From positions 1 through 38,111 of the IMG/VR virus record IMGVR_UViG_3300045988_094968: 38,111 nt of DNA; one strand, 5' to 3'. The position numbers and the translations under genes were made by a program. Under the pieces are notes generated by a model that worked only from the letters and a program-made list of their open reading frames with translations, searched no databases and had not been told where the DNA came from. The stretch is from a virus. Shown piece after piece: positions 3,620 to 26,215 of this stretch (positions are counted from its first letter, which is position 1; each line of letters begins with the position of its first letter).

Positions 3620-3829
3620 ATGTTAGATTACAAAGAATGGAACGAAACTGTTCCTAAATTGTTAGGTAAAAAAATTCGTATAACCTGCACAGATGATGAA
3701 GTCTATAACACCACCTGTGATTATATCTCAGAAGCAGAAGATGACGAAGGATATAATCTGCCTGTCATTGTAACGCCTTTTTTTGAATTTGACAGAACTG
3801 ATGTTAAAAAAATTGAATTTTTAGATTAA
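3620..3829 (+). CDS. Small acidic protein (69 aa), candidate partner/immunity protein of the portal C-terminal domain
   Basis: The ATG lies 2 nt after the portal stop, and RBS AAAGGAGG sits in the portal 3' end. It shares the AT-rich composition of the portal tail. An acidic patch 'SEAEDDEG' is present, and a hairpin terminator follows. Confidence 0.5.
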   Translation: MLDYKEWNETVPKLLGKKIRITCTDDEVYNTTCDYISEAEDDEGYNLPVIVTPFFEFDRTDVKKIEFLD

Positions 3830-17421: not shown

Positions 17422-17473
17422 AAATCATATCTTTGTTCAATTTAGACCGCCTAACTGCTCGAAGATATGATTT
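17422..17473. repeat. 52-bp element with perfect 12-bp terminal inverted repeats; candidate attP
   Basis: AAATCATATCTT (17422-17433) and AAGATATGATTT (17462-17473) are separated by 28 nt and abut the integrase stop codon. Confidence 0.35.
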
Positions 17474-18908
17474 ACATTTTATAAAGAATTTCGATTATTC
17501 CTTTTGGTTTAATATAAGTGATTCTGTCAACCAATCCTCTGAGGGTGTAGTTCTTCAGGGCTTCGCTTGTCTCGTCACTTTCAAGAATTTTCAGCGATGC
17601 CATTATTTTCCTTGAAATAATTTCCTTTATATCTTTGTCAGACTTGGGAAGAACCTTGGAGGCTTTGGCTTCGAGTTCAGCTATATGGTCTTGAATTTTC
17701 TGCTTAGCAGTCTTATATTCGGCAAGTGTATCAACTCCTGCTTCGTAAGCCTCTCGCACTCGCGCGAGCTTTTTCTTTTCACGCGCGATCAGGCTTGAAA
17801 AGTCGGGAGCGGATGAGCTTGAAGCTCCTGTTGGCTCGACAGCTACTTCAAAATTCTGAGATTTGGCATCGGATCTAAGTTTTTCCAGAACTGCTGCATT
17901 TATTTTTTTAACTGTGATACTATGTGATGTTTTGCATACACCTCTTGCATAGTTGTGGCATTGCAAGGATTTAGCCGCAGACTGATTGACGAGAGTAGCT
18001 CCACACGCGCTGCAACGTACTATGCCTTTCAGCATAAACTCGGACGGGGTTTGTCTTGCGTGCTTAGGATATCGCTGTTTCAACTCAGAACGTTTTCTTT
18101 GGGCTTGTTCAAATGTTTCCGTGTCAATTATAGGCACATGATTTCCGTTGACTATAAGAGTGTTTTCAGCATCTTGGTGATAATGGTCGCTGATGTTTTT
18201 TTCTTTACTACGGCGGAGTTTTCCTATGTAGACAGGATTTGTAATAATGTATTCGATTGCGCGGTTTTCAAAAAAATTGCCTTTTGCAGTTCTCAGCCCC
18301 AAATCATTAAGTTCCCGTGCAATTTCCCGTGTGCCTTTACCTGCAATAAAATCAGCAAAAATTTTTTGAACTATGGGCGCTGTTTCAGGGTCGGGAGCAA
18401 AAATTCCATCTTTCATCATATAACCGTAGGGCGGCTGAGAAACAACACCGCCGCGGGAGAATTTTTCAGTCATGCCGCGCTTGACTTCTTCTGCAAGATT
18501 CAGGCTGTAATATTCGTCCATAGCTTCGATAAGAGCCTCGATGAGAATGGACGTGTTATCATCTCCGAGCTGTTCCGAGATAGATACAACATCTATGCCG
18601 CATTGCTTGCGGAGCATGGACTTATAAACAATACTGTCCTGCCGATTTCGGGCAAAGCGTGAAAATTTCCACAACAGTATCACGTCAAATGGTTTGGGCT
18701 TGATCTTGGCTGTACCGATCATGCGCTGGAATGACGGACGTTTATCTGCTTTTCTGCCGCTGATTCCCTCATCGACAAAAATAAATTCTTCCGGCAGTAT
18801 CATGTCATGGTCCTTGGCATACTTACGGATAGCTTTTATCTGAGAATCGGGGGAGTACTCGATCTGATCATCGGTTGATACTCTTATATATGCCGCTGCG
18901 GTTTGCAT
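17472..18908 (-). CDS. int: Large serine recombinase (integrase)
   Basis: 478 aa. It has the N-terminal resolvase motif 'AAYIRVSTDDQ...SPDSQ', a recombinase domain, a zinc ribbon 'CSACGATL...CHNYARGVC', and a C-terminal coiled coil. Confidence 0.92.
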   Translation of the reverse strand: MQTAAAYIRVSTDDQIEYSPDSQIKAIRKYAKDHDMILPEEFIFVDEGISGRKADKRPSFQRMIGTAKIKPKPFDVILLWKFSRFARNRQDSIVYKSMLRKQCGIDVVSISEQLGDDNTSILIEALIEAMDEYYSLNLAEEVKRGMTEKFSRGGVVSQPPYGYMMKDGIFAPDPETAPIVQKIFADFIAGKGTREIARELNDLGLRTAKGNFFENRAIEYIITNPVYIGKLRRSKEKNISDHYHQDAENTLIVNGNHVPIIDTETFEQAQRKRSELKQRYPKHARQTPSEFMLKGIVRCSACGATLVNQSAAKSLQCHNYARGVCKTSHSITVKKINAAVLEKLRSDAKSQNFEVAVEPTGASSSSAPDFSSLIAREKKKLARVREAYEAGVDTLAEYKTAKQKIQDHIAELEAKASKVLPKSDKDIKEIISRKIMASLKILESDETSEALKNYTLRGLVDRITYIKPKGIIEILYKM

Positions 18909-18923
18909 GGTTATACCCCCTTT

Positions 18924-19325
18924 TTAATAATTATCGCTGCTCAACACATCGAAATGCCGTCTGTAGCGCTTCGGGATATTGATGCCTACAATATATCCTA
19001 TCGAGTGCAGAAAATCGGAAATAACGGCAAATCCGTCCTTGTAAAAGGCTTCTATGCGCTTATCCTTGAAAGGAATGTTCTTATAATCGGGCGGGCATAC
19101 AAACGTCCAGTCCGCTCCGCTCTTGTCAAGGACGATACGGAAGAACTTATCAATATCAGTATCTTTGTATCCTGCTTTCATGAGGAGAATATGGTGCTCC
19201 ACGGCCTCGTCTATTTGGCTCATAATCGCTGTTTTGCCGTCAAATGATATAAGTACGAGCAGCGGCTCATCAGCTCTCACAGCCGCATTTACGCTCTCCT
19301 CTGAGGGGTATCTGATTATATCCAT
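18924..19325 (-). CDS. Hypothetical protein (133 aa), probably co-transcribed with the integrase
   Basis: RBS GAAAGGAG lies 7-8 nt before the ATG. The gene ends 15 nt upstream of the int start. No motif was recognised. Confidence 0.6.
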   Translation of the reverse strand: MDIIRYPSEESVNAAVRADEPLLVLISFDGKTAIMSQIDEAVEHHILLMKAGYKDTDIDKFFRIVLDKSGADWTFVCPPDYKNIPFKDKRIEAFYKDGFAVISDFLHSIGYIVGINIPKRYRRHFDVLSSDNY

Positions 19326-19367
19326 TCATTTGCTCCTTTCTGATTGTTTGTTTCGATTATTTCATTT

Positions 19368-19473
19368 ATTTCAACTCACACGCCTCATGCGAGGCGTGAC
19401 CCTGACAGCTATGCAAATAATCAACATATGTCAAAATCATTTCAACTCACACGCGCCTCGTGGGAGGTGGGAC
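19368..19473 (-). CRISPR. Two CRISPR-repeat-like units (type I-C-like) flanking a 38-nt spacer-like segment; no cas genes in the genome
   Basis: Minus-strand reading: GTCACGCCTCGCATGAGGCGTGTGAGTTGAAAT (19400..19368; perfect 8-bp stem, 4-nt loop) and GTCCCACCTCCCACGAGGCGCGTGTGAGTTGAAAT (19473..19439; degenerate). Both share the 15-nt tail CGTGTGAGTTGAAAT. The layout GTC, stem-loop, then G(T)GA(G/T)TTGAAAT matches recalled I-C repeats (e.g. GTCTCACCCTTCATGGGTGAGTGGATTGAAAT). Confidence 0.55.
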
Positions 19474-19548
19474 ATTGTCAGCCTATGATGCGTGGATTAA
19501 ATACGCACTTTATTTGTTTTCGCGATTTTCAGAGAAAATTCTAAATTA

Positions 19549-20586
19549 TCAACAGGATATTGTATCTTCGCTTTCGCCGTTGACAATTTCTAACAGTTCA
19601 TTTACCGATATTTCTTTTTTAGTCGCTATAATGTAAATGAACAACTTACCCGCTGCGAAACTATCATAAACAGCATTATGGGCATCAGATATAAAAACTT
19701 GTGCAGATTCACATATGTCCGCCAATTTATAACTGCTTTTGCCCTTCAAAAATTTTCGTGACAGTTGAAGCGTATCATAAATGGCTTTGTCTTTAATTGA
19801 ATCCAAACCGTTTACATATAGATGTTTTACATCAAACGGAGCATTATGGGCAACAAGCGGGAGGTCTTCTATGAAGTCATTAAAGCTATCTATAACTTGG
19901 TAAAACTTCGGGGCATTTTCCACCATTTCATCTGTTATCCCGTTAATATCGGTTATTTCTTCTGGGATAGGTTTTCTCGGTTTAATATAAGTGTTGAATT
20001 TTTCTACAGGCAGGAAATTTTTAAATTTAATTGCAGAAAGCTGAATAACATCATTGCCGCCTGTTTTTAACCCTGTTGTCTCAGTATCAAATGCAATAAA
20101 ATCTTTAATGGATTTGAGCGAAGTAGATTTAATTATACTTTTATACTCTTTATCTTCAATATCCAACTGCTTGTTGCGATTTTTCCTTTCACCGCTCAGG
20201 GTAATTTTATATTCAGGAATAGAATCAACAGTTTCTTTAAACTTAATGCGATCTTCGGCTATAGATTCTTCGCGTTGCCGTTTAAGACGTTCGTACCGTT
20301 CTTCTCTCTCTTGTTTTTCCAATTGCTCTTGCAATATCCTTTTCCTGCGTGCCTCGTTTATTTCACCTTGCTTTTTTAGGTATTCTGCTCTCTCTTCGGC
20401 TTCACGTCTTTCACGTTCGACCTTTCTTTTATACTCTTTGAACTCAATTTCTTCTTGCTTTTTAGACTTTTTGGGAGTTCTTTTAAATAATGTAATGTCA
20501 TTTAGTGTGATATTCTTATGATTTGTTAGTTCGGCAATCAGTGCTATGATGAATGTAATAATAATTATGTATACATAAATCCTCAT
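19549..20586 (-). CDS. Membrane-anchored coiled-coil protein with a C-terminal DEDDh (DnaQ-like) 3'-5' exonuclease domain
   Basis: Start ATG 20586 lies 6 nt after GGAGGA; the track start at 20676 overlaps the repressor gene. The TM segment is 'IYVYIIIITFIIALIAEL', followed by about 100 aa of E/R/K-rich coil. The exonuclease motifs are ExoI 'FDTETTGL', ExoII 'VAHNAPFDVKHL' and ExoIII 'HNAVYDSFA'. Confidence 0.8.
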   Translation of the reverse strand: MRIYVYIIIITFIIALIAELTNHKNITLNDITLFKRTPKKSKKQEEIEFKEYKRKVERERREAEERAEYLKKQGEINEARRKRILQEQLEKQEREERYERLKRQREESIAEDRIKFKETVDSIPEYKITLSGERKNRNKQLDIEDKEYKSIIKSTSLKSIKDFIAFDTETTGLKTGGNDVIQLSAIKFKNFLPVEKFNTYIKPRKPIPEEITDINGITDEMVENAPKFYQVIDSFNDFIEDLPLVAHNAPFDVKHLYVNGLDSIKDKAIYDTLQLSRKFLKGKSSYKLADICESAQVFISDAHNAVYDSFAAGKLFIYIIATKKEISVNELLEIVNGESEDTISC

Positions 20587-20633: not shown

Positions 20634-21371
20634 TTACTGCGGCAGTTCTGCCGTGCCTATTACGCGACCGACACAAATGATTTCTCCGTCCTCGGGGTAT
20701 ATATCAGGGTATTCATCGTTGTGTGAAATCAAACGATCATTGCCTTTTTCTTTTATATATCCCTTATTGTTTTGGATAAACAATCCAATTTTTCCAACAG
20801 GGACATCTGTATCAGATACCACATATACAATATCGCCGTTCTGGTATGTTGGTTCCATACTGCGACCGTCAATCTCGACGGCGAAATCCGCCTTTTGTGC
20901 TTCGGGCGTGTCAACGACCTCTAAATCTTCCCAATTATCGGCGTCCTCTAAGTCGTATCCGCAACCTGCCGATACCTTGTGTACGCTGAAACGCTTGAAA
21001 ACAATGATTTTCGGCTCACCTGCCATACCTCGCTTGGCAGCTTCGCCCAACTGTATCATTGTGTCCATAATGATCTGTCGTATATTTTCGGGCAGCTTGC
21101 AGTACAGATCTAAGGCTTCTTTCTCGCCGATAGCCAGATTCAACATGGCTATCGGATTTTTTTCGGATTCACGTCCGAGCAGATAGTCAACAGTTACGTT
21201 AAAATGATTTGCAAGTACTATTAAACCGTCTGCATTAGGTTCAGATGTACCATTTTCATATCGCTGATACGCCTGCTGTGTTACTCCGACTATTTTGGCG
21301 ATTTCAGATTGGCGTTCATTTTTGGATTCGCGTAACTTTTTTAATATAGCGCCACGTTCTGATCTATCCAT
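20634..21371 (-). CDS. CI/LexA-like repressor (XRE HTH plus S24 peptidase)
   Basis: ATG 21371 lies 8 nt after AAAGGAG. The HTH is 'QSEIAKIVGVTQQAYQRYENG'. A possible Ala-Gly cleavage site is 'VSAGCGY'. The catalytic 'DGRSMEP' serine and a downstream lysine are present. Confidence 0.9.
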   Translation of the reverse strand: MDRSERGAILKKLRESKNERQSEIAKIVGVTQQAYQRYENGTSEPNADGLIVLANHFNVTVDYLLGRESEKNPIAMLNLAIGEKEALDLYCKLPENIRQIIMDTMIQLGEAAKRGMAGEPKIIVFKRFSVHKVSAGCGYDLEDADNWEDLEVVDTPEAQKADFAVEIDGRSMEPTYQNGDIVYVVSDTDVPVGKIGLFIQNNKGYIKEKGNDRLISHNDEYPDIYPEDGEIICVGRVIGTAELPQ

Positions 21372-21393: not shown

Positions 21394-21423
21394 ATTATAC
21401 AACAAAACTGTGTACAAAGTCAA
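21394..21423 (-). promoter_or_regulatory. Repressor promoter (TTGACT-N18-TATAAT) with embedded palindrome
   Basis: Minus strand reads TTGACTTTGTACACAGTTTTGTTGTATAAT. The spacer contains ACTTTGTACACAGT (12/14 symmetric). Confidence 0.6.
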
Positions 21424-22877: not shown

Positions 22878-22934
22878 GGAGGTAAACAATGAACGACTTA
22901 ATCAAAGTCAACGGCGTAGAAAGGAGATGATTTC

Positions 22935-23093
22935 ATGCCCGAATCAAGAGCAAGCACAGCTCCCGAAAACTTTCAGCGAAGTTACGCTGAGCTCTCTGAA
23001 TCGAACAAGGCACTTATAAGTGCGATGCTAAATATGAGTTTCGCATTGCTTCAAAGCGTCCAGCAGGTTCAAAATTCACAGGACAAACATTAA
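22935..23093 (+). CDS. Small protein (52 aa), not in the ORF track
   Basis: AAAGGAG lies 8 nt before ATG 22935. The product begins MPESRASTAPENFQRSYAELSESNKALISAMLNMSFALLQ. A 13-codon mini-ORF precedes it (22889-22930; GGAGGT RBS). Confidence 0.4.
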   Translation: MPESRASTAPENFQRSYAELSESNKALISAMLNMSFALLQSVQQVQNSQDKH

Positions 23094-23130
23094 ATAAGCC
23101 GTGTCGAATAATATATAATGAGGTGATATT

Positions 23131-23346
23131 ATGGCAAAAGAGTTAAAGGTTGTAAGCTATGTAAAGGGCAAGGACGGCGAGCGTATACCGCTTGACAGTT
23201 TAAGCGACGAGCAGCGTTCGGAATACGCGGCAAAGATCAGAGAGTCGGTAGCTAATTCCATTAGCCAGTATCTTTCAGAACATCCGGAAGAAATACCGAG
23301 TTTCATACGAGCTGCTGAGAGCAGCAGAGAGGAGATTCAGGAATGA
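23131..23346 (+). CDS. Hypothetical early protein (71 aa)
   Basis: RBS GAGGTGA. Stop/start overlap with the next ORF. Confidence 0.55.
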   Translation: MAKELKVVSYVKGKDGERIPLDSLSDEQRSEYAAKIRESVANSISQYLSEHPEEIPSFIRAAESSREEIQE

Positions 23347-23555
23347 ACACATTAACCACAATAGCGATCGTAGCCGCCGCCGCTCTGATAGCCTACGCGG
23401 CGCAGGAGACGTGCGAGCTGGTACATAAGTACAACGTATGGGCGACCGAGAAAAGCCGCTCAGAACACCGTGCAAGAGCCTACAAAGAGGTCAGGGAGCG
23501 CAGAGCAATCGAAAAGAACCGCGAGGAAATCTATAGAGTGTGGGGGCAGATATGA
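23343..23555 (+). CDS. Hypothetical protein with an N-terminal TM segment (70 aa)
   Basis: ATGA overlap with the upstream gene. The hydrophobic stretch is 'LTTIAIVAAAALIAYAA'. Confidence 0.55.
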   Translation: MNTLTTIAIVAAAALIAYAAQETCELVHKYNVWATEKSRSEHRARAYKEVRERRAIEKNREEIYRVWGQI

Positions 23556-23713
23556 AACCGACACTCTACGAAATGGCTGCGGCTGTGGCTATCAAGATAC
23601 AGCAGATAGATTGCAGGCTTGAAATTACGCCGGAGCAGGTTCTAAGGAGAGGTACGCCTGACTTTGTGCGGTTTATGTATGGGAAGATTTGCAAATGCGC
23701 AGAGAGGAGGTGA
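23552..23713 (+). CDS. Small protein (53 aa), not in the ORF track
   Basis: ATGA overlap with the upstream stop. The product begins MKPTLYEMAAAVAIKIQQIDCRLEITPEQVLRRGTPDF. Confidence 0.4.
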   Translation: MKPTLYEMAAAVAIKIQQIDCRLEITPEQVLRRGTPDFVRFMYGKICKCAERR

Positions 23714-23717
23714 TTCC

Positions 23718-23834
23718 ATGAGATACTGCAAATCATGCCGGAAGCTGATAATTGGCGAATGCCGCAGGGGCATCGGTTTTGCCTATCATATTTCTTGCTA
23801 CATAAAGATTTTTGGCAAGGACTGGTTCACATAA
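23718..23834 (+). CDS. Cys-rich mini-protein (38 aa), not in the ORF track
   Basis: GAGAGGAGGTGA lies 5 nt before the ATG. The product is MRYCKSCRKLIIGECRRGIGFAYHISCYIKIFGKDWFT. Confidence 0.3.
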   Translation: MRYCKSCRKLIIGECRRGIGFAYHISCYIKIFGKDWFT

Positions 23835-23923
23835 GACAAAAAAATAGCTGTACAAGCGTACAGCACAACAAACAAACAATATAAACCCACTGCTATTATA
23901 GCAGAACTGAAAGGAAAAGTCAA

Positions 23924-24283
23924 ATGGATATAGAGAAATATTTTGACAGAACAAAAATCAAGGGTGAGTATCAGCAGGCTGTTGCCGCTGAAACAGCAAA
24001 GGCGCTCACGCTGTTCTGTGAACAGGAAGCCGAATTTGAGCAGGCGATCGATCAGTCAGGCAAGAGCTTTCAGGAGTGTCTTGACAGCGCAGTCCAAGGG
24101 ATAAAGGCAAGCTGCTCAGACTTTGAAGTGTTCAGCAGAGCCGTGAAGTTTTACTTCTCCACAGCAGAGGTCCACTTCAATATGAAAATCGACCTCGTTG
24201 GCAGTGCCAGTCAGGAAGATCCGCCGATCACTATGGTCAAAAACAGCCTCGACCTGTCGCTTGACAGCCTTCTCGATTTCTGA
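23924..24283 (+). CDS. PcfK-like protein (family recalled as also annotated 'Cas9 inhibitor AcrIIA9 family')
   Basis: 119 aa with the pattern 'KSFQECLDSAV...CSDFEVFSRAVKFYF'. It lies immediately upstream of a PcfJ-like gene, which is the usual pairing. Confidence 0.6.
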   Translation: MDIEKYFDRTKIKGEYQQAVAAETAKALTLFCEQEAEFEQAIDQSGKSFQECLDSAVQGIKASCSDFEVFSRAVKFYFSTAEVHFNMKIDLVGSASQEDPPITMVKNSLDLSLDSLLDF

Positions 24284-24291
24284 GGTGCGGT

Positions 24292-25575
24292 ATGAAAAAA
24301 GAGAGAAAAGAAGCACTGCTGAGCAGTTTCCCACCTGTCCCTGATGATATAGCGGAACAGATGTGTGCCGGAAAGAATGCGGCTAATTATATCGTGTTTC
24401 TCACTCGTGGAGACGAGCTGTATGTGCGAGGCTATCATAAATATTCAAAGGGTCACGGCATTGTAGAGCGTCAGCGTTATGTATTCGCCAAGGACGGATT
24501 TGTACGATACGGCACCGATTTCAGGGGCAAGTGGAGTGTTCGCTCGGAGTTTCGTGAACCTGTGTTTTGCAGCACTGCATACGGATATTCTTTCGACAAT
24601 TCATACACAGCGCTGAATCTTCAGGCAATAAAACGATCATGTATGAAGTATTCGATGATAGATAATAAAGGCTCTCATCGTTTGATTATCGAATATCTCA
24701 GATTGTACTGCAAGCATCCGAATATCGAGTATCTGCTGAAATCAGGATACTATCCGATCGAAGAGAGAGTATCAGGATATTGGGGTGGGCGGACAAGCTT
24801 GTATGCATCGCAGAAAATCAATTGGAAAAGCAATAACCTGCTGAAAATGCTGAACCTGAACCGCACAGAATTTGCGGTATTGAAAGGCAGTGAGGGGTAT
24901 TACGAAAGATATATCTTCTGGCGCGAAAAGTTCCCGAAGATGAAGCCGGAAGATATCTTGCTCGTTGCAAAAGTGTTCAACTATGAAACCGGGACGCTAC
25001 AGCGATTATGTGAATCCACAGGGATAAAAACGCCGAGGCTTGCACGGTATCTCAGCGAAAGTGAAATAGGTACAAGGGATTACAGTGACTATATATCCCA
25101 GTGCAGGGAACTCGGGTATGATATGCATGATACAGCAATATCAATGCCGCATGACTTTCAGGCGATACATGAACGTTTGTCCGAACTGATAAAAATAAAG
25201 GTCAGTGATGAAGCAAGAGCTGCATTCGGAGAGAATTATCCTTTGCGAAAGAAGCTGGAGTACCGTTTCGGAGGTTTGTTTATCCGACAGCCCGAAAGCA
25301 TGAATGAGATCGTAGAGGAAGGTTCATTTCTGCATCATTGTGTGGGAGGATATGCTGAACGCCATGCACATGGGAAACTCCACATACTTTTCATCAGGGC
25401 AGCGGACAAGCCAGACGTTCCGTATTACACAATGGAGCTGAGCGTTTCAGGCGATATCGTTCAGGTCAGAGGGCTGAGAAACCGTGACATGACTCGCAAA
25501 GTCAAAGATTTTGTGGAGCAGTATAAAAAGTACATTGCAGAAATTTTTATTAAAAAGGAGAAGATATCGGCATGA
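24292..25575 (+). CDS. PcfJ-like protein
   Basis: 427 aa. The C-terminal signature is 'FLHHCVGGYAERHAHGKLHILFIRAADKPDVPYYTMEL...IVQVRGLRN'. Confidence 0.78.
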   Translation: MKKERKEALLSSFPPVPDDIAEQMCAGKNAANYIVFLTRGDELYVRGYHKYSKGHGIVERQRYVFAKDGFVRYGTDFRGKWSVRSEFREPVFCSTAYGYSFDNSYTALNLQAIKRSCMKYSMIDNKGSHRLIIEYLRLYCKHPNIEYLLKSGYYPIEERVSGYWGGRTSLYASQKINWKSNNLLKMLNLNRTEFAVLKGSEGYYERYIFWREKFPKMKPEDILLVAKVFNYETGTLQRLCESTGIKTPRLARYLSESEIGTRDYSDYISQCRELGYDMHDTAISMPHDFQAIHERLSELIKIKVSDEARAAFGENYPLRKKLEYRFGGLFIRQPESMNEIVEEGSFLHHCVGGYAERHAHGKLHILFIRAADKPDVPYYTMELSVSGDIVQVRGLRNRDMTRKVKDFVEQYKKYIAEIFIKKEKISA

Positions 25576-25784
25576 ATGAAAAACCTACACGCTGTATAGA
25601 TCCGGTTATCAAGTATTGTCAGGAATGCCCGCTTGGCTGGGTAAAATATCCTGACTGGGTCGAAACCCTTGAAGATCTGCGCGGCTGCACATTTGAAAGC
25701 GGATGCTGCTATGGATTTGAAAACGATGAACCCACCGAGGAAGAACTCAGGGAGTTCAATGAATGGTGTGAAAACGCACATTAA
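25572..25784 (+). CDS. Cys-rich small protein (70 aa)
   Basis: ATGA overlap with the upstream gene. 'CQECPLGW...CTFESGCCYG'. Confidence 0.55.
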   Translation: MNEKPTRCIDPVIKYCQECPLGWVKYPDWVETLEDLRGCTFESGCCYGFENDEPTEEELREFNEWCENAH

Positions 25785-25797
25785 AAGGAGAACAGGT

Positions 25798-26016
25798 ATG
25801 AATGAATTAAAGAAATACTCTACTCCTCAGCTTGTGGATGAGCTGAGAAGCAGAGCAGAAACAGGCGTATACAATTGTGACTTGTATCGTGACGATAATT
25901 ACAGGGTCACTATTAAAAAAACATATGGTGACAACATCACAATTTCACCGCCGACTTTCTGTGACGTTATCATTGTCAATCGTAAGGGTTTTCATCAGGA
26001 TATCTCCGAGAAATAA
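25798..26016 (+). CDS. Hypothetical protein (72 aa)
   Basis: AAAAGGAGA lies 7 nt before ATG 25798. The longer track ORF from 25669 overlaps the previous gene. Confidence 0.55.
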   Translation: MNELKKYSTPQLVDELRSRAETGVYNCDLYRDDNYRVTIKKTYGDNITISPPTFCDVIIVNRKGFHQDISEK

Positions 26017-26215
26017 ATCGGATATACTCGTCATAGAGCCTGTCAAAAATTTCATGCTGTTCTTTCCCGAGAGTTGATATGTACATGAACATTACATATT
26101 TTTCACAGGCAAGCGGAAAATTTTCATCTGCCAGAACATCTTTTACAAATCTTCCGACATTGTCATTGAACGCATGATAACAAGTTGTTTTCAGCCATTC
26201 TTTAAAACTAAGCAT
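25976..26215 (-). CDS. YozE-like (SAM-like fold) small protein, antisense to the early operon
   Basis: ATG 26215 follows AAAGGAGG. The product contains 'SFKEWLKTTCYHAFNDNVGRFVKDVLADENFP', resembling YozE/DUF1250. The gene overlaps the convergent gene by 41 nt. Confidence 0.6.
   Translation of the reverse strand: MLSFKEWLKTTCYHAFNDNVGRFVKDVLADENFPLACEKYVMFMYISTLGKEQHEIFDRLYDEYIRFISRRYPDENPYD

Follow-up and report, generated by a model that had tools for sequence, protein, structure and literature searches.

Organization of the repeat locus

We analyzed the IMG/VR virus record IMGVR_UViG_3300045988_094968 over its full length of 38,111 nt (hereafter, the window), a temperate phage genome of about 38 kb that corresponds to the human-gut metagenome contig ERR636388 k127_47592. 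The subject of this study is a short repeat-spacer-repeat element within its lysogeny block, which has the appearance of a minimal CRISPR array. The block lies on the minus strand in the order repressor, exonuclease, mini-array, a gene for a 133-residue protein and serine recombinase. Read in the same direction, the mini-array is made up of a leader-like segment, a decayed repeat that has kept its handle (R1), one spacer and one perfect repeat (R2). The features are given below, together with the evidence for each; other phage and host sequences are designated by L numbers.

20634..21371, minus strand: CI/LexA-like repressor gene (HTH_3 and Peptidase_S24), the first gene of the block (Pfam; gene call in L065)
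19549..20586, minus strand: gene for an exonuclease of the DEDDh (RNase T) type with a transmembrane (TM) segment, directly upstream of the mini-array (Pfam, PHROGs, gene call)
19326-19548: intergenic region of 223 bp that holds the repeats
19474..19530, minus strand: conserved leader-like segment, 57 nt (alignment of the window, L005 and L015)
19473..19439, minus strand: R1, the decayed upstream repeat, with a degenerate stem and an intact tail
19401..19438, minus strand: spacer, 38 nt between the repeats, of which 37 nt (19438..19402) equal a protospacer in the Ltp gene of sibling phages
19400..19368, minus strand: R2, a perfect 33-nt type I-C repeat, GTCACGCCTCGCATGAGGCGTGTGAGTTGAAAT (sequence, fold, and the exact 33-mer in arrays adjoining I-C cas operons)
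18924..19325, minus strand: gene for the 133-residue protein, 42 nt downstream of R2 (open reading frames (ORFs), Pfam, contexts in siblings)
17472-18908, minus strand: large serine recombinase gene, next after the 133-residue protein gene (ORFs, Pfam)

An earlier, sequence-only reading of this DNA had proposed that repeat units like those of type I-C, unaccompanied by cas genes, lie in the lysogeny module, and the coordinates and sequences that it assigned to the repeats were confirmed. Its statement that the genome has no cas genes also held, as tblastn of the window with the type I-C Cas proteins of a host-lineage locus (L040, described below) returned noise only. R2 folds into 2 nt, an 8-bp stem, a 4-nt loop and an 11-nt tail, TGAGTTGAAAT, with an energy of −14.5 kcal/mol (z = −3.5), and it shows the type I-C feature of a stable stem-loop followed by an 11-nt single-stranded tail, the future 5′ handle; R1, which folds weakly (−8.6 kcal/mol, z = −1.5), fails to show that feature. 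The stem of R1 has decayed, and its tail is preserved: an exact stretch of 16 nt, GCGTGTGAGTTGAAAT, which contains the 11-nt 5′ handle, is common to R1 (19454..19439) and R2. The gap between the two repeats is 38 nt, the tail-to-tail period is 71 nt, and the window contains two copies of the 14-mer tail where 0.31 are expected. The repeat reads GTCAC...GAAAT when followed in its direction of transcription, which corresponds to the minus strand of the window and is co-directional with the lysogeny genes.

The CRISPR RNA (crRNA) of type I-C systems (the D. vulgaris and B. halodurans type) is processed by Cas5c, and the tail commonly quoted for the type I-C repeat is TGGATTGAAAT/C. The repeat in the window shares with the type I-C (Dvulg) repeat and crRNA a length of about 32-33 nt, a GTC start, a GC-rich stem of 7-8 bp, a 4-nt loop and an 11-nt 3′ tail ending in TTGAAAT, and in host genomes it is located behind a complete I-C cas operon. 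It differs in its tail, TGAGTTGAAAT, and in having no match to an Rfam CRISPR-DR family; neither such a family nor any other credible Rfam match was found, either for the window at the gathering threshold or for the locus at E <= 10.

Occurrence of the repeat in type I-C loci of the host lineage

A scan of 185,579 species genomes located the exact 33-mer in CRISPR arrays: that of Ca. Ruminococcus hominiciens has 48 copies, and those of metagenome-assembled genomes (MAGs) of Clostridia have about 197 and 21. A chance origin of the repeat is excluded because the whole 33-mer recurs exactly in arrays (up to about 197 copies) of other genomes. The repeat typing and host-array search that the sequence-only reading had suggested thus placed the exact 33-mer behind I-C cas operons in Ruminococcus and Clostridia MAGs. 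The array of L040 follows cas3-cas5c-cas8c-cas7/Csd2-cas4-cas1c-cas2 on the same strand, and that of L049 follows cas4-cas1c-cas2; Cas5c, Cas8c/Csd1, Cas7/Csd2 and Cas1c encoded by L040/L049 exceed the curated NCBIfam cut-offs for type I-C. Since the repeat is identical in arrays located behind I-C cas operons, it is genuinely of type I-C and belongs to the lineage of the phage's host, and the typing given in the earlier reading stands. The host lineage is indicated by close homologues of the 133-residue protein, which are labeled Ruminococcus sp.

Protospacers in sibling phages

Fragments of sibling phages were retrieved by exact-protein look-ups with the window's own proteins. The spacer of the window matches them perfectly (37/37, in inverted orientation) at L056:1225-1261, L089/L090:6902-6938 and L091:2215-2251. 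The target is a gene for a lipoprotein of 390-403 residues assigned to Ltp superinfection exclusion (Pfam PF07553; PHROG superinfection exclusion, 1e-67), and in the siblings this gene sits exactly at the position that the exonuclease gene occupies in the window. Within the window, the spacer was found in the array itself and in no second copy, and BLAST of the spacer against INPHARED gave chance-level partial matches only. The 38-nt segment had been described as spacer-sized; because it has a perfect protospacer in sibling phages, it is a true spacer. The same 37/37 match argues against a duplicated 71-nt unit, which had been suggested from the similarity between the end of the spacer and the end of the leader; that similarity is at chance level, as it was reached in 592 of 2000 shuffles and with 43% of unrelated host spacers.

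Two of the targeted contigs permitted the converse comparison. L089 is from the NCBI MAG GCA_052301415.1, and L090 is the same phage in another sample. They are 98.9% identical to the window at 22913-26117 and 97.6% identical at 19400-17445, and they have the same integration site, with an immunity region that is unrelated to that of the window: the repressors are only 32% identical over 63 residues, and the Ltp gene replaces the exonuclease gene. The mini-array spacer of L089/L090, TTTTAATATAGCGCCACGTTCTGATCTATCCAT, is identical (33/33) to a segment of the window.

21339..21371, plus strand: protospacer of the L089/L090 spacer, the reverse complement of codons 1-11 of the repressor gene (MDRSERGAILK), with a 5′ CTT at 21336-21338

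This protospacer and its flank are present in every contig that carries the window's repressor. Because the L089/L090 spacer matches the start of the window's repressor gene and the window spacer matches the Ltp gene of L089/L090, the targeting between the two phages is, at the level of sequence matches, reciprocal, and the reciprocal targets are exactly the modules by which these siblings differ. A third pair was formed by the spacer of L059, which matches (33/33, 5′ flank ctaatCTT) a small TM ORF of L005/L015/L052/L053 and has no match in the window. Scans of IMG/VR with 20-23-mers of five spacers of the locus (A, B, C, E and G; see below) recovered the arrays themselves, apart from a partial match in L054; this 20-nt match was treated as chance, as the rest of the spacer is mismatched.

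These matches bear on another possible role, in which the transcript would be a regulatory crRNA-like RNA (Cracr or crlRNA) that, being partly complementary to a cas or toxin promoter, directs host Cascade there and so silences immunity. Viral Cracr arrays, including those of type I-C, have been reported (10.1101/2024.10.29.618823), and the five spacers for which we have no target would leave room for such a function. However, full complementarity over 37 nt to a phage gene predicts cleavage and not binding alone, and none of the mini-array spacers is similar to cas-proximal sequences of L040 and L049 (a comparison that does not include the region upstream of cas3). We regard a regulatory role as very unlikely.

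Spacer turnover at a fixed locus

Eight unrelated spacers were found at the same locus, each between homologous R1 and R2 copies, in near-identical genetic backgrounds. The alleles are distributed as follows.

Allele A: window, L064
Allele B: L005, L053, L095
Allele C: L015
Allele D1: L056
Allele D2: L089, L090
Allele E: L057
Allele F: L059
Allele G: L092, L094

The repressor that precedes alleles A, B and G has the same protein sequence in all three. R2 is perfect in nearly every allele, with the loop GCAC instead of GCAT in allele F and in L094. R1 is homologous among alleles A, B, C, E and G and is degenerate, with the handle tail intact in A, B, D, E and G; in allele D, R1 is reduced to its last 14 nt and lacks a hairpin (−2 kcal/mol), and in allele C (L015) the handle of R1 has decayed as well. 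This pattern suggests that selection keeps the handle-encoding tail of R1 while the stem decays. In L091, a collapsed array (2497-2520) consists of the R1 handle remnant fused to the sequence that normally follows R2, a structure that we read as direct evidence of spacer loss by recombination between the repeat tails. No mini-array spacer was present among approximately 400 spacers extracted from host and IMG/VR arrays.

One alternative explanation for the conservation of R2 is that the locus encodes an RNA anti-CRISPR (Racr), or decoy, in which R2, with or without the handle remnant, would sequester Cas5c and Cas7 in aberrant complexes and shield the prophage, the spacer being incidental. R2 is indeed kept perfect even in allele C (L015), in which the R1 handle has also decayed; unrelated IMG/VR phages commonly carry solitary units of this repeat family; and a type I-C Racr has been validated experimentally (PMC10651486). 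In contrast, a decoy needs no target, and three spacers have perfect, PAM-consistent protospacers in siblings (PAM, protospacer adjacent motif; see below), one pair being reciprocal. The R1 handle is preserved while the stem decays, as a guide RNA but not a decoy would require. Racr units often have acr genes as neighbors or follow directly on a promoter; there is no conserved promoter directly upstream of R2, where the spacer varies; no recognized acr gene is adjacent by Pfam or PHROGs; and a strong Racr would disable the guide's own effector. By the rule applied in SRUFinder, a solitary repeat has no second repeat-like unit within about 100 bp (PMC10651486), and here R1, with the identical 16-nt tail, lies 38 nt upstream of R2. 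The earlier reading had cited proposals that such units either hijack host Cas proteins against competitors or act as RNA anti-CRISPRs. The targets in siblings and their reciprocity support the former, and the latter is unneeded to explain the locus and, in our estimation, unlikely; the conservation of R2 and the solitary units found elsewhere nevertheless keep it alive as an additional or fallback role.

The turnover could also be a neutral by-product, if fragments of host arrays were repeatedly captured by recombination at a mosaic junction and had no selected function. The locus marks a boundary between modules, with cargo that varies on either side; L091 shows that an array can shrink to nothing but its handle; and host arrays naturally hold spacers against the phages of the host. 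Such capture fits poorly with the constant one-spacer architecture across the eight alleles and with reciprocal targeting of the modules that distinguish the siblings, and the absence of the mini-array spacers from the spacers extracted from host and IMG/VR arrays argues against it as well. We consider that a purely neutral origin is improbable.

A common sequence flanks the protospacers

The three perfect protospacers have the 5′ flanks acaatCTT, ctaatCTT and cgtaaCTT, and their 3′ flanks share no motif. All of the 37/37 protospacers in the Ltp gene carry the 5′ flank acaatCTT.

21336-21338 of the window: CTT flank
L056:1262-1264: CTT flank
L005:2834-2836 region: CTT flank (AATCTT in two of the three cases)

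The consistent 5′ motif supports PAM-selected acquisition of the spacers and confirms the orientation of the array. The I-C systems that have been studied strongly prefer the PAM 5′-TTC (10.1101/2022.06.15.496202). In an attempt to determine the PAM of the host system, the approximately 400 array spacers were compared with all loci collected and four whole arrays were compared with INPHARED; no protospacers were found in either comparison.

Leader, strand and transcription

In the siblings, the leader-like segment comprises the last ~20 nt of the small TM ORF and a hairpin (19489-19507), and it is unlike the host leaders of L040/L049. The sequence-only reading had noted a third repeat fragment, GCGTGGATTAAAT, at 19490-19502 on the plus strand. 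The sequence is present, and it is not a repeat of this family; it lies in the leader hairpin, is absent from host arrays, and is conserved with that hairpin in sibling phages. The plus-strand hairpin and T-tract that had been put forward as a possible terminator also exist, and the hairpin with its T-run does score as a plus-strand terminator-like site, but it sits inside the conserved leader. The single change in the stem in L015 retains a U-G pair on the minus-strand RNA and creates an A-C mismatch on the plus strand, which hints, weakly, at a role for the hairpin on the minus strand. The earlier reading had left both strands in consideration; the question is resolved in favor of the minus strand by the orientation of the repeat relative to host cas operons and by the PAM-like flank, which is found only 5′ of the protospacers.

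Immediately upstream of the leader, the siblings L005, L015, L092, L094 and L095 have an ORF of 49-51 codons with a single TM segment (MAPEIIILILLAIISIILILSVVHISAKVDEIASRMRRLVEIAEKSENK) and a strong ribosome-binding site, located between the exonuclease gene and the leader.

19530/19531: deletion junction, where the small ORF of 139 bp is absent in the window and GAAAA flanks the gap (alignment with L005/L015)

The deleted 49-codon ORF (MAPEIIIL...) holds the protospacer of allele F (L059), and the deletion may therefore represent CRISPR escape.

Promoter-like sites on the minus strand were detected at 21423..21394, just upstream of the repressor gene (the best, with 11/12 matches), and, weaker, at 19586..19559 and 19552..19525. 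A sequence scan found no minus-strand terminator-like site between the repressor promoter-like site and the recombinase gene. Another promoter-like site, built from TTGAAA of the handle and spacer sequence, was discounted because the spacer differs between alleles. Scans of IMG/VR and of metagenomes with the leader pattern found two loci each, the sole new record being L053, which has the L005 allele.

Genes adjacent to the mini-array

The called start of the exonuclease gene is the ATG at 20586, and a version of the protein with a TTG start had no record in the exact-protein look-up. This membrane-anchored DEDDh exonuclease (19549-20586) is a candidate exclusion or defense gene, its slot being held by the Ltp superinfection-exclusion lipoprotein gene in siblings. 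The 133-residue protein has no Pfam or PHROG match. It has 1792 homologues, of which the close ones are labeled Ruminococcus sp.; they include copies of about 85% identity at a fixed site of the Ruminococcus chromosome between feoB and tyrS, and others are in mobile elements. The gene looks like a host-derived accessory gene, and an anti-CRISPR role for it is unlikely. None of the neighbors of the mini-array carries an anti-CRISPR annotation in Pfam or PHROGs, and BLAST of the locus against INPHARED gave a distant integrase match only.

The repeat family in other phages, and the integration site

A scan of IMG/VR with the 16-nt tail identified 38 loci, which include long arrays, two-repeat mini-arrays and many solitary units. 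The stems differ between variants, and the tail TGAGTTGAAAT is constant. Unrelated phage contigs (L014, L019, L021, L022, L024, L031, L032, L015, L028 and L037, all from IMG/VR) have a solitary repeat or a mini-array of this family at a distance of 17-39 nt upstream of an integrase gene, with both the serine and the tyrosine type represented. Co-transcription, a hot spot for accessory (moron) genes and a recombination junction are possible reasons for this recurrent placement.

Placement next to integrase genes would also be expected if the repeat were an attachment-site mimic, that is, a phage attachment site (attP) or homology patch for integration into a host CRISPR array, which would neutralize the array, and prophage insertion into CRISPR arrays has been described, according to work cited in PMC7099407. 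The prophage junctions point elsewhere. L056, L059, L060 and L089 lose homology with the window at 17445, where all of them enter the same cotJC-like Mn-catalase gene; L092 likewise has a Mn_catalase gene directly after its recombinase gene.

17440..17450 (~17445): attP crossover region, just past the recombinase stop codon (homology break in four contigs)

Integrated copies keep the mini-array intact, about 1.9 kb inside the prophage. The repeat was rejected as an attachment site, since the prophage junction is at ~17445 and not in the CRISPR repeat, and integration into a host array is a hardly credible explanation for its presence. Siblings with different repressors share the integration site beside the cotJC-like Mn-catalase gene.

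Several further occurrences of the repeat family were recorded. Contigs L055, L059, L060, L063 and L088 start exactly inside the repeat (ACGCCTCGCATGAGG...); assemblies break at multi-copy repeats, and these starts point to the joint presence of arrays with this repeat in the samples concerned. L023 (12436-14754, IMG/VR) encodes an endolysin that is 77% identical to that of the window and has, about 1.2 kb further on, at least five exact repeats running off the end of the contig; this is either a longer phage-borne array or a prophage beside a host array. The human-faecal phage of GenBank MT836150.1 has one copy of the repeat family (3735-3780), and it was the sole INPHARED match of the host arrays. 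With the repeat variant GTCACGCTCCACGTGAGCGTGTGAGTTGAAAT, a spacer of L008 (33-66), a phage contig of 102 kb, matches L035:5660-5687 in a phage contig of 88 kb; the match is not perfect, covering 28 nt at 96% and including an indel, and L035 itself carries a solitary repeat. Finally, in L001 and L034, long arrays lie at the ends of IMG/VR contigs, and the last repeat is followed by a sequence resembling a tRNA 3′ end (GGGTTCAAGTCCCGTCAC...), possibly a remnant of an attachment site.

Discussion

In our proposal, the phage carries a type I-C mini-CRISPR array without cas genes of its own, situated in the lysogeny block, that would exclude sibling phages, and we assign to this interpretation a probability of roughly 0.77. 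It is built on the identity and type of the repeat, the strand, the spacer-protospacer pairs including their reciprocity, the turnover of spacers and the absence of cas genes, which are matters of observation. According to this proposal, the array would be transcribed in the lysogen, probably with or beside the lysogeny genes, with a start at 21423..21394 or at one of the weaker sites (19586..19559 and 19552..19525). The Ruminococcus host would provide a type I-C system with the identical repeat. Its Cas5c would cut at R2, which would supply the 3′ hairpin of the crRNA, whereas a cut at the weak hairpin of R1 is uncertain. Host Cas5c/Cascade would then load the single crRNA, and Cascade would recruit Cas3, leading to destruction of incoming siblings that bear the Ltp gene. 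This would amount to heterotypic superinfection exclusion by means of CRISPR among phages whose repressors differ and which compete for the same host and the same bacterial attachment site (attB). As the leaders of phage and host are dissimilar, the frequent exchange of spacers at this locus has probably taken place by recombination through the repeat tails and not by canonical leader-dependent adaptation.

A number of points weigh against this proposal. Transcription, processing despite the weak R1 hairpin, the competence of CTT as a PAM and interference are steps that we infer. The hairpin of R1 is weak, and absent in allele D, so cleavage by Cas5c on the 5′ side is uncertain. The CTT flank is at odds with the canonical TTC of type I-C. 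The type I-C system was identified, from genome sequences, in the host lineage and not in the individual host strain, and the repeat has no Rfam match, although such a match is not a defining feature of the I-C subtype. Five of the eight mini-array spacers have no target among the sequences sampled. Moreover, passive capture from a host array would likewise tend to yield spacers that match phages of the host, and the matches in siblings are thus by themselves no proof of selection.

Two of these points, the state of R1 and the CTT flank, could be accommodated if the mini-array works in a non-canonical manner, a possibility that we hold only tentatively and consider rather doubtful. Neither a handle-only R1 nor a CTT flank is known to us as described for type I-C. 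Where R1 is reduced to the handle (11-14 nt, in several alleles), the crRNA's 5′ end would need to be set without a Cas5c cut, perhaps by the transcription start or by another RNase, or these alleles may be decoys. The presence of CTT at all perfect protospacers may imply a clade of Ruminococcus I-C systems with a different PAM. It is also conceivable, with the same reservation, that the shared repeat at the junction between cargo and integrase modules could itself drive the shuffling of modules among phages that compete for one attB.

If the exclusion proposal holds, the locus would be a clean, sequence-resolved case of temperate sibling phages at war through CRISPR in an abundant genus of the human gut, in which the single spacer of each sibling aims at the distinguishing module of the other, the repressor start in one and the Ltp gene in the other. 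The support cited here for the phenomenon is bioinformatic in phages and experimental in archaeal viruses; with a bacterial I-C pair whose two partners are identified, and with eight alleles, the hypothesis would become open to direct test. Questions about I-C biology arise from the CTT flank and from the reduction of the upstream repeat to its handle, and there is a consequence for virome annotation, because CRISPR repeats in phage contigs break assemblies and can pass for host arrays.

The locus can be compared with known systems, the closest of which are virus-borne mini-arrays. Saccharolobus viruses SPV1 and SPV2 carry mini-CRISPR arrays (PMC6858448), and a bioinformatic survey of phage and prophage mini-arrays by Faure et al. 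(2019) is summarized in PMC7099407 and PMC11656645. Virus mini-arrays have repeats that are the same as the host's, spacers against adjacent genes of close relatives and mutual targeting, with deletions at the orthologous sites and leaders unlike that of the host (PMC6858448, PMC7099407, PMC11656645); for phage mini-arrays, the dissimilar leaders have been taken to suggest that spacers are exchanged by recombination (PMC7099407). The mini-array in the window likewise has no cas genes, one spacer, a host-identical repeat, reciprocal targeting and spacer turnover at a fixed locus. Its targets, too, lie beside the mini-array in close relatives and not in the carrier, where the orthologous site is deleted or different, and its leader is unlike the host leader, as reported for phages. 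It differs in being of type I-C and carried by temperate phages of human-gut Ruminococcus, and in being known from sequence alone. Further differences are that the upstream repeat is reduced to the handle, some alleles retaining 14 nt without a hairpin, that the targets are the repressor start and the Ltp gene of siblings using the same attB, and that the flank is CTT.

Two other classes of phage-encoded repeat share part of this organization. RacrIC1 and solitary repeat units (PMC10651486) are also phage-encoded copies of a host I-C repeat without cas genes; the locus described here has, in contrast, a second partial repeat with an intact handle one spacer length upstream, perfect targets and no recognized acr neighbor. 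Viral Cracr mini-arrays (10.1101/2024.10.29.618823; 10.1101/2023.03.03.530964) are similarly carried by phages and have one degenerate repeat, but Cracr RNAs are partly complementary to the host's cas or toxin promoters, whereas here the complementarity is full-length and directed to a gene of a rival phage. Virus-borne mini-CRISPR arrays are already known, and what is particular to this case is its occurrence as a type I-C array in gut Ruminococcus phages, with a resolved reciprocal pair, a handle-only R1 and the CTT flank.

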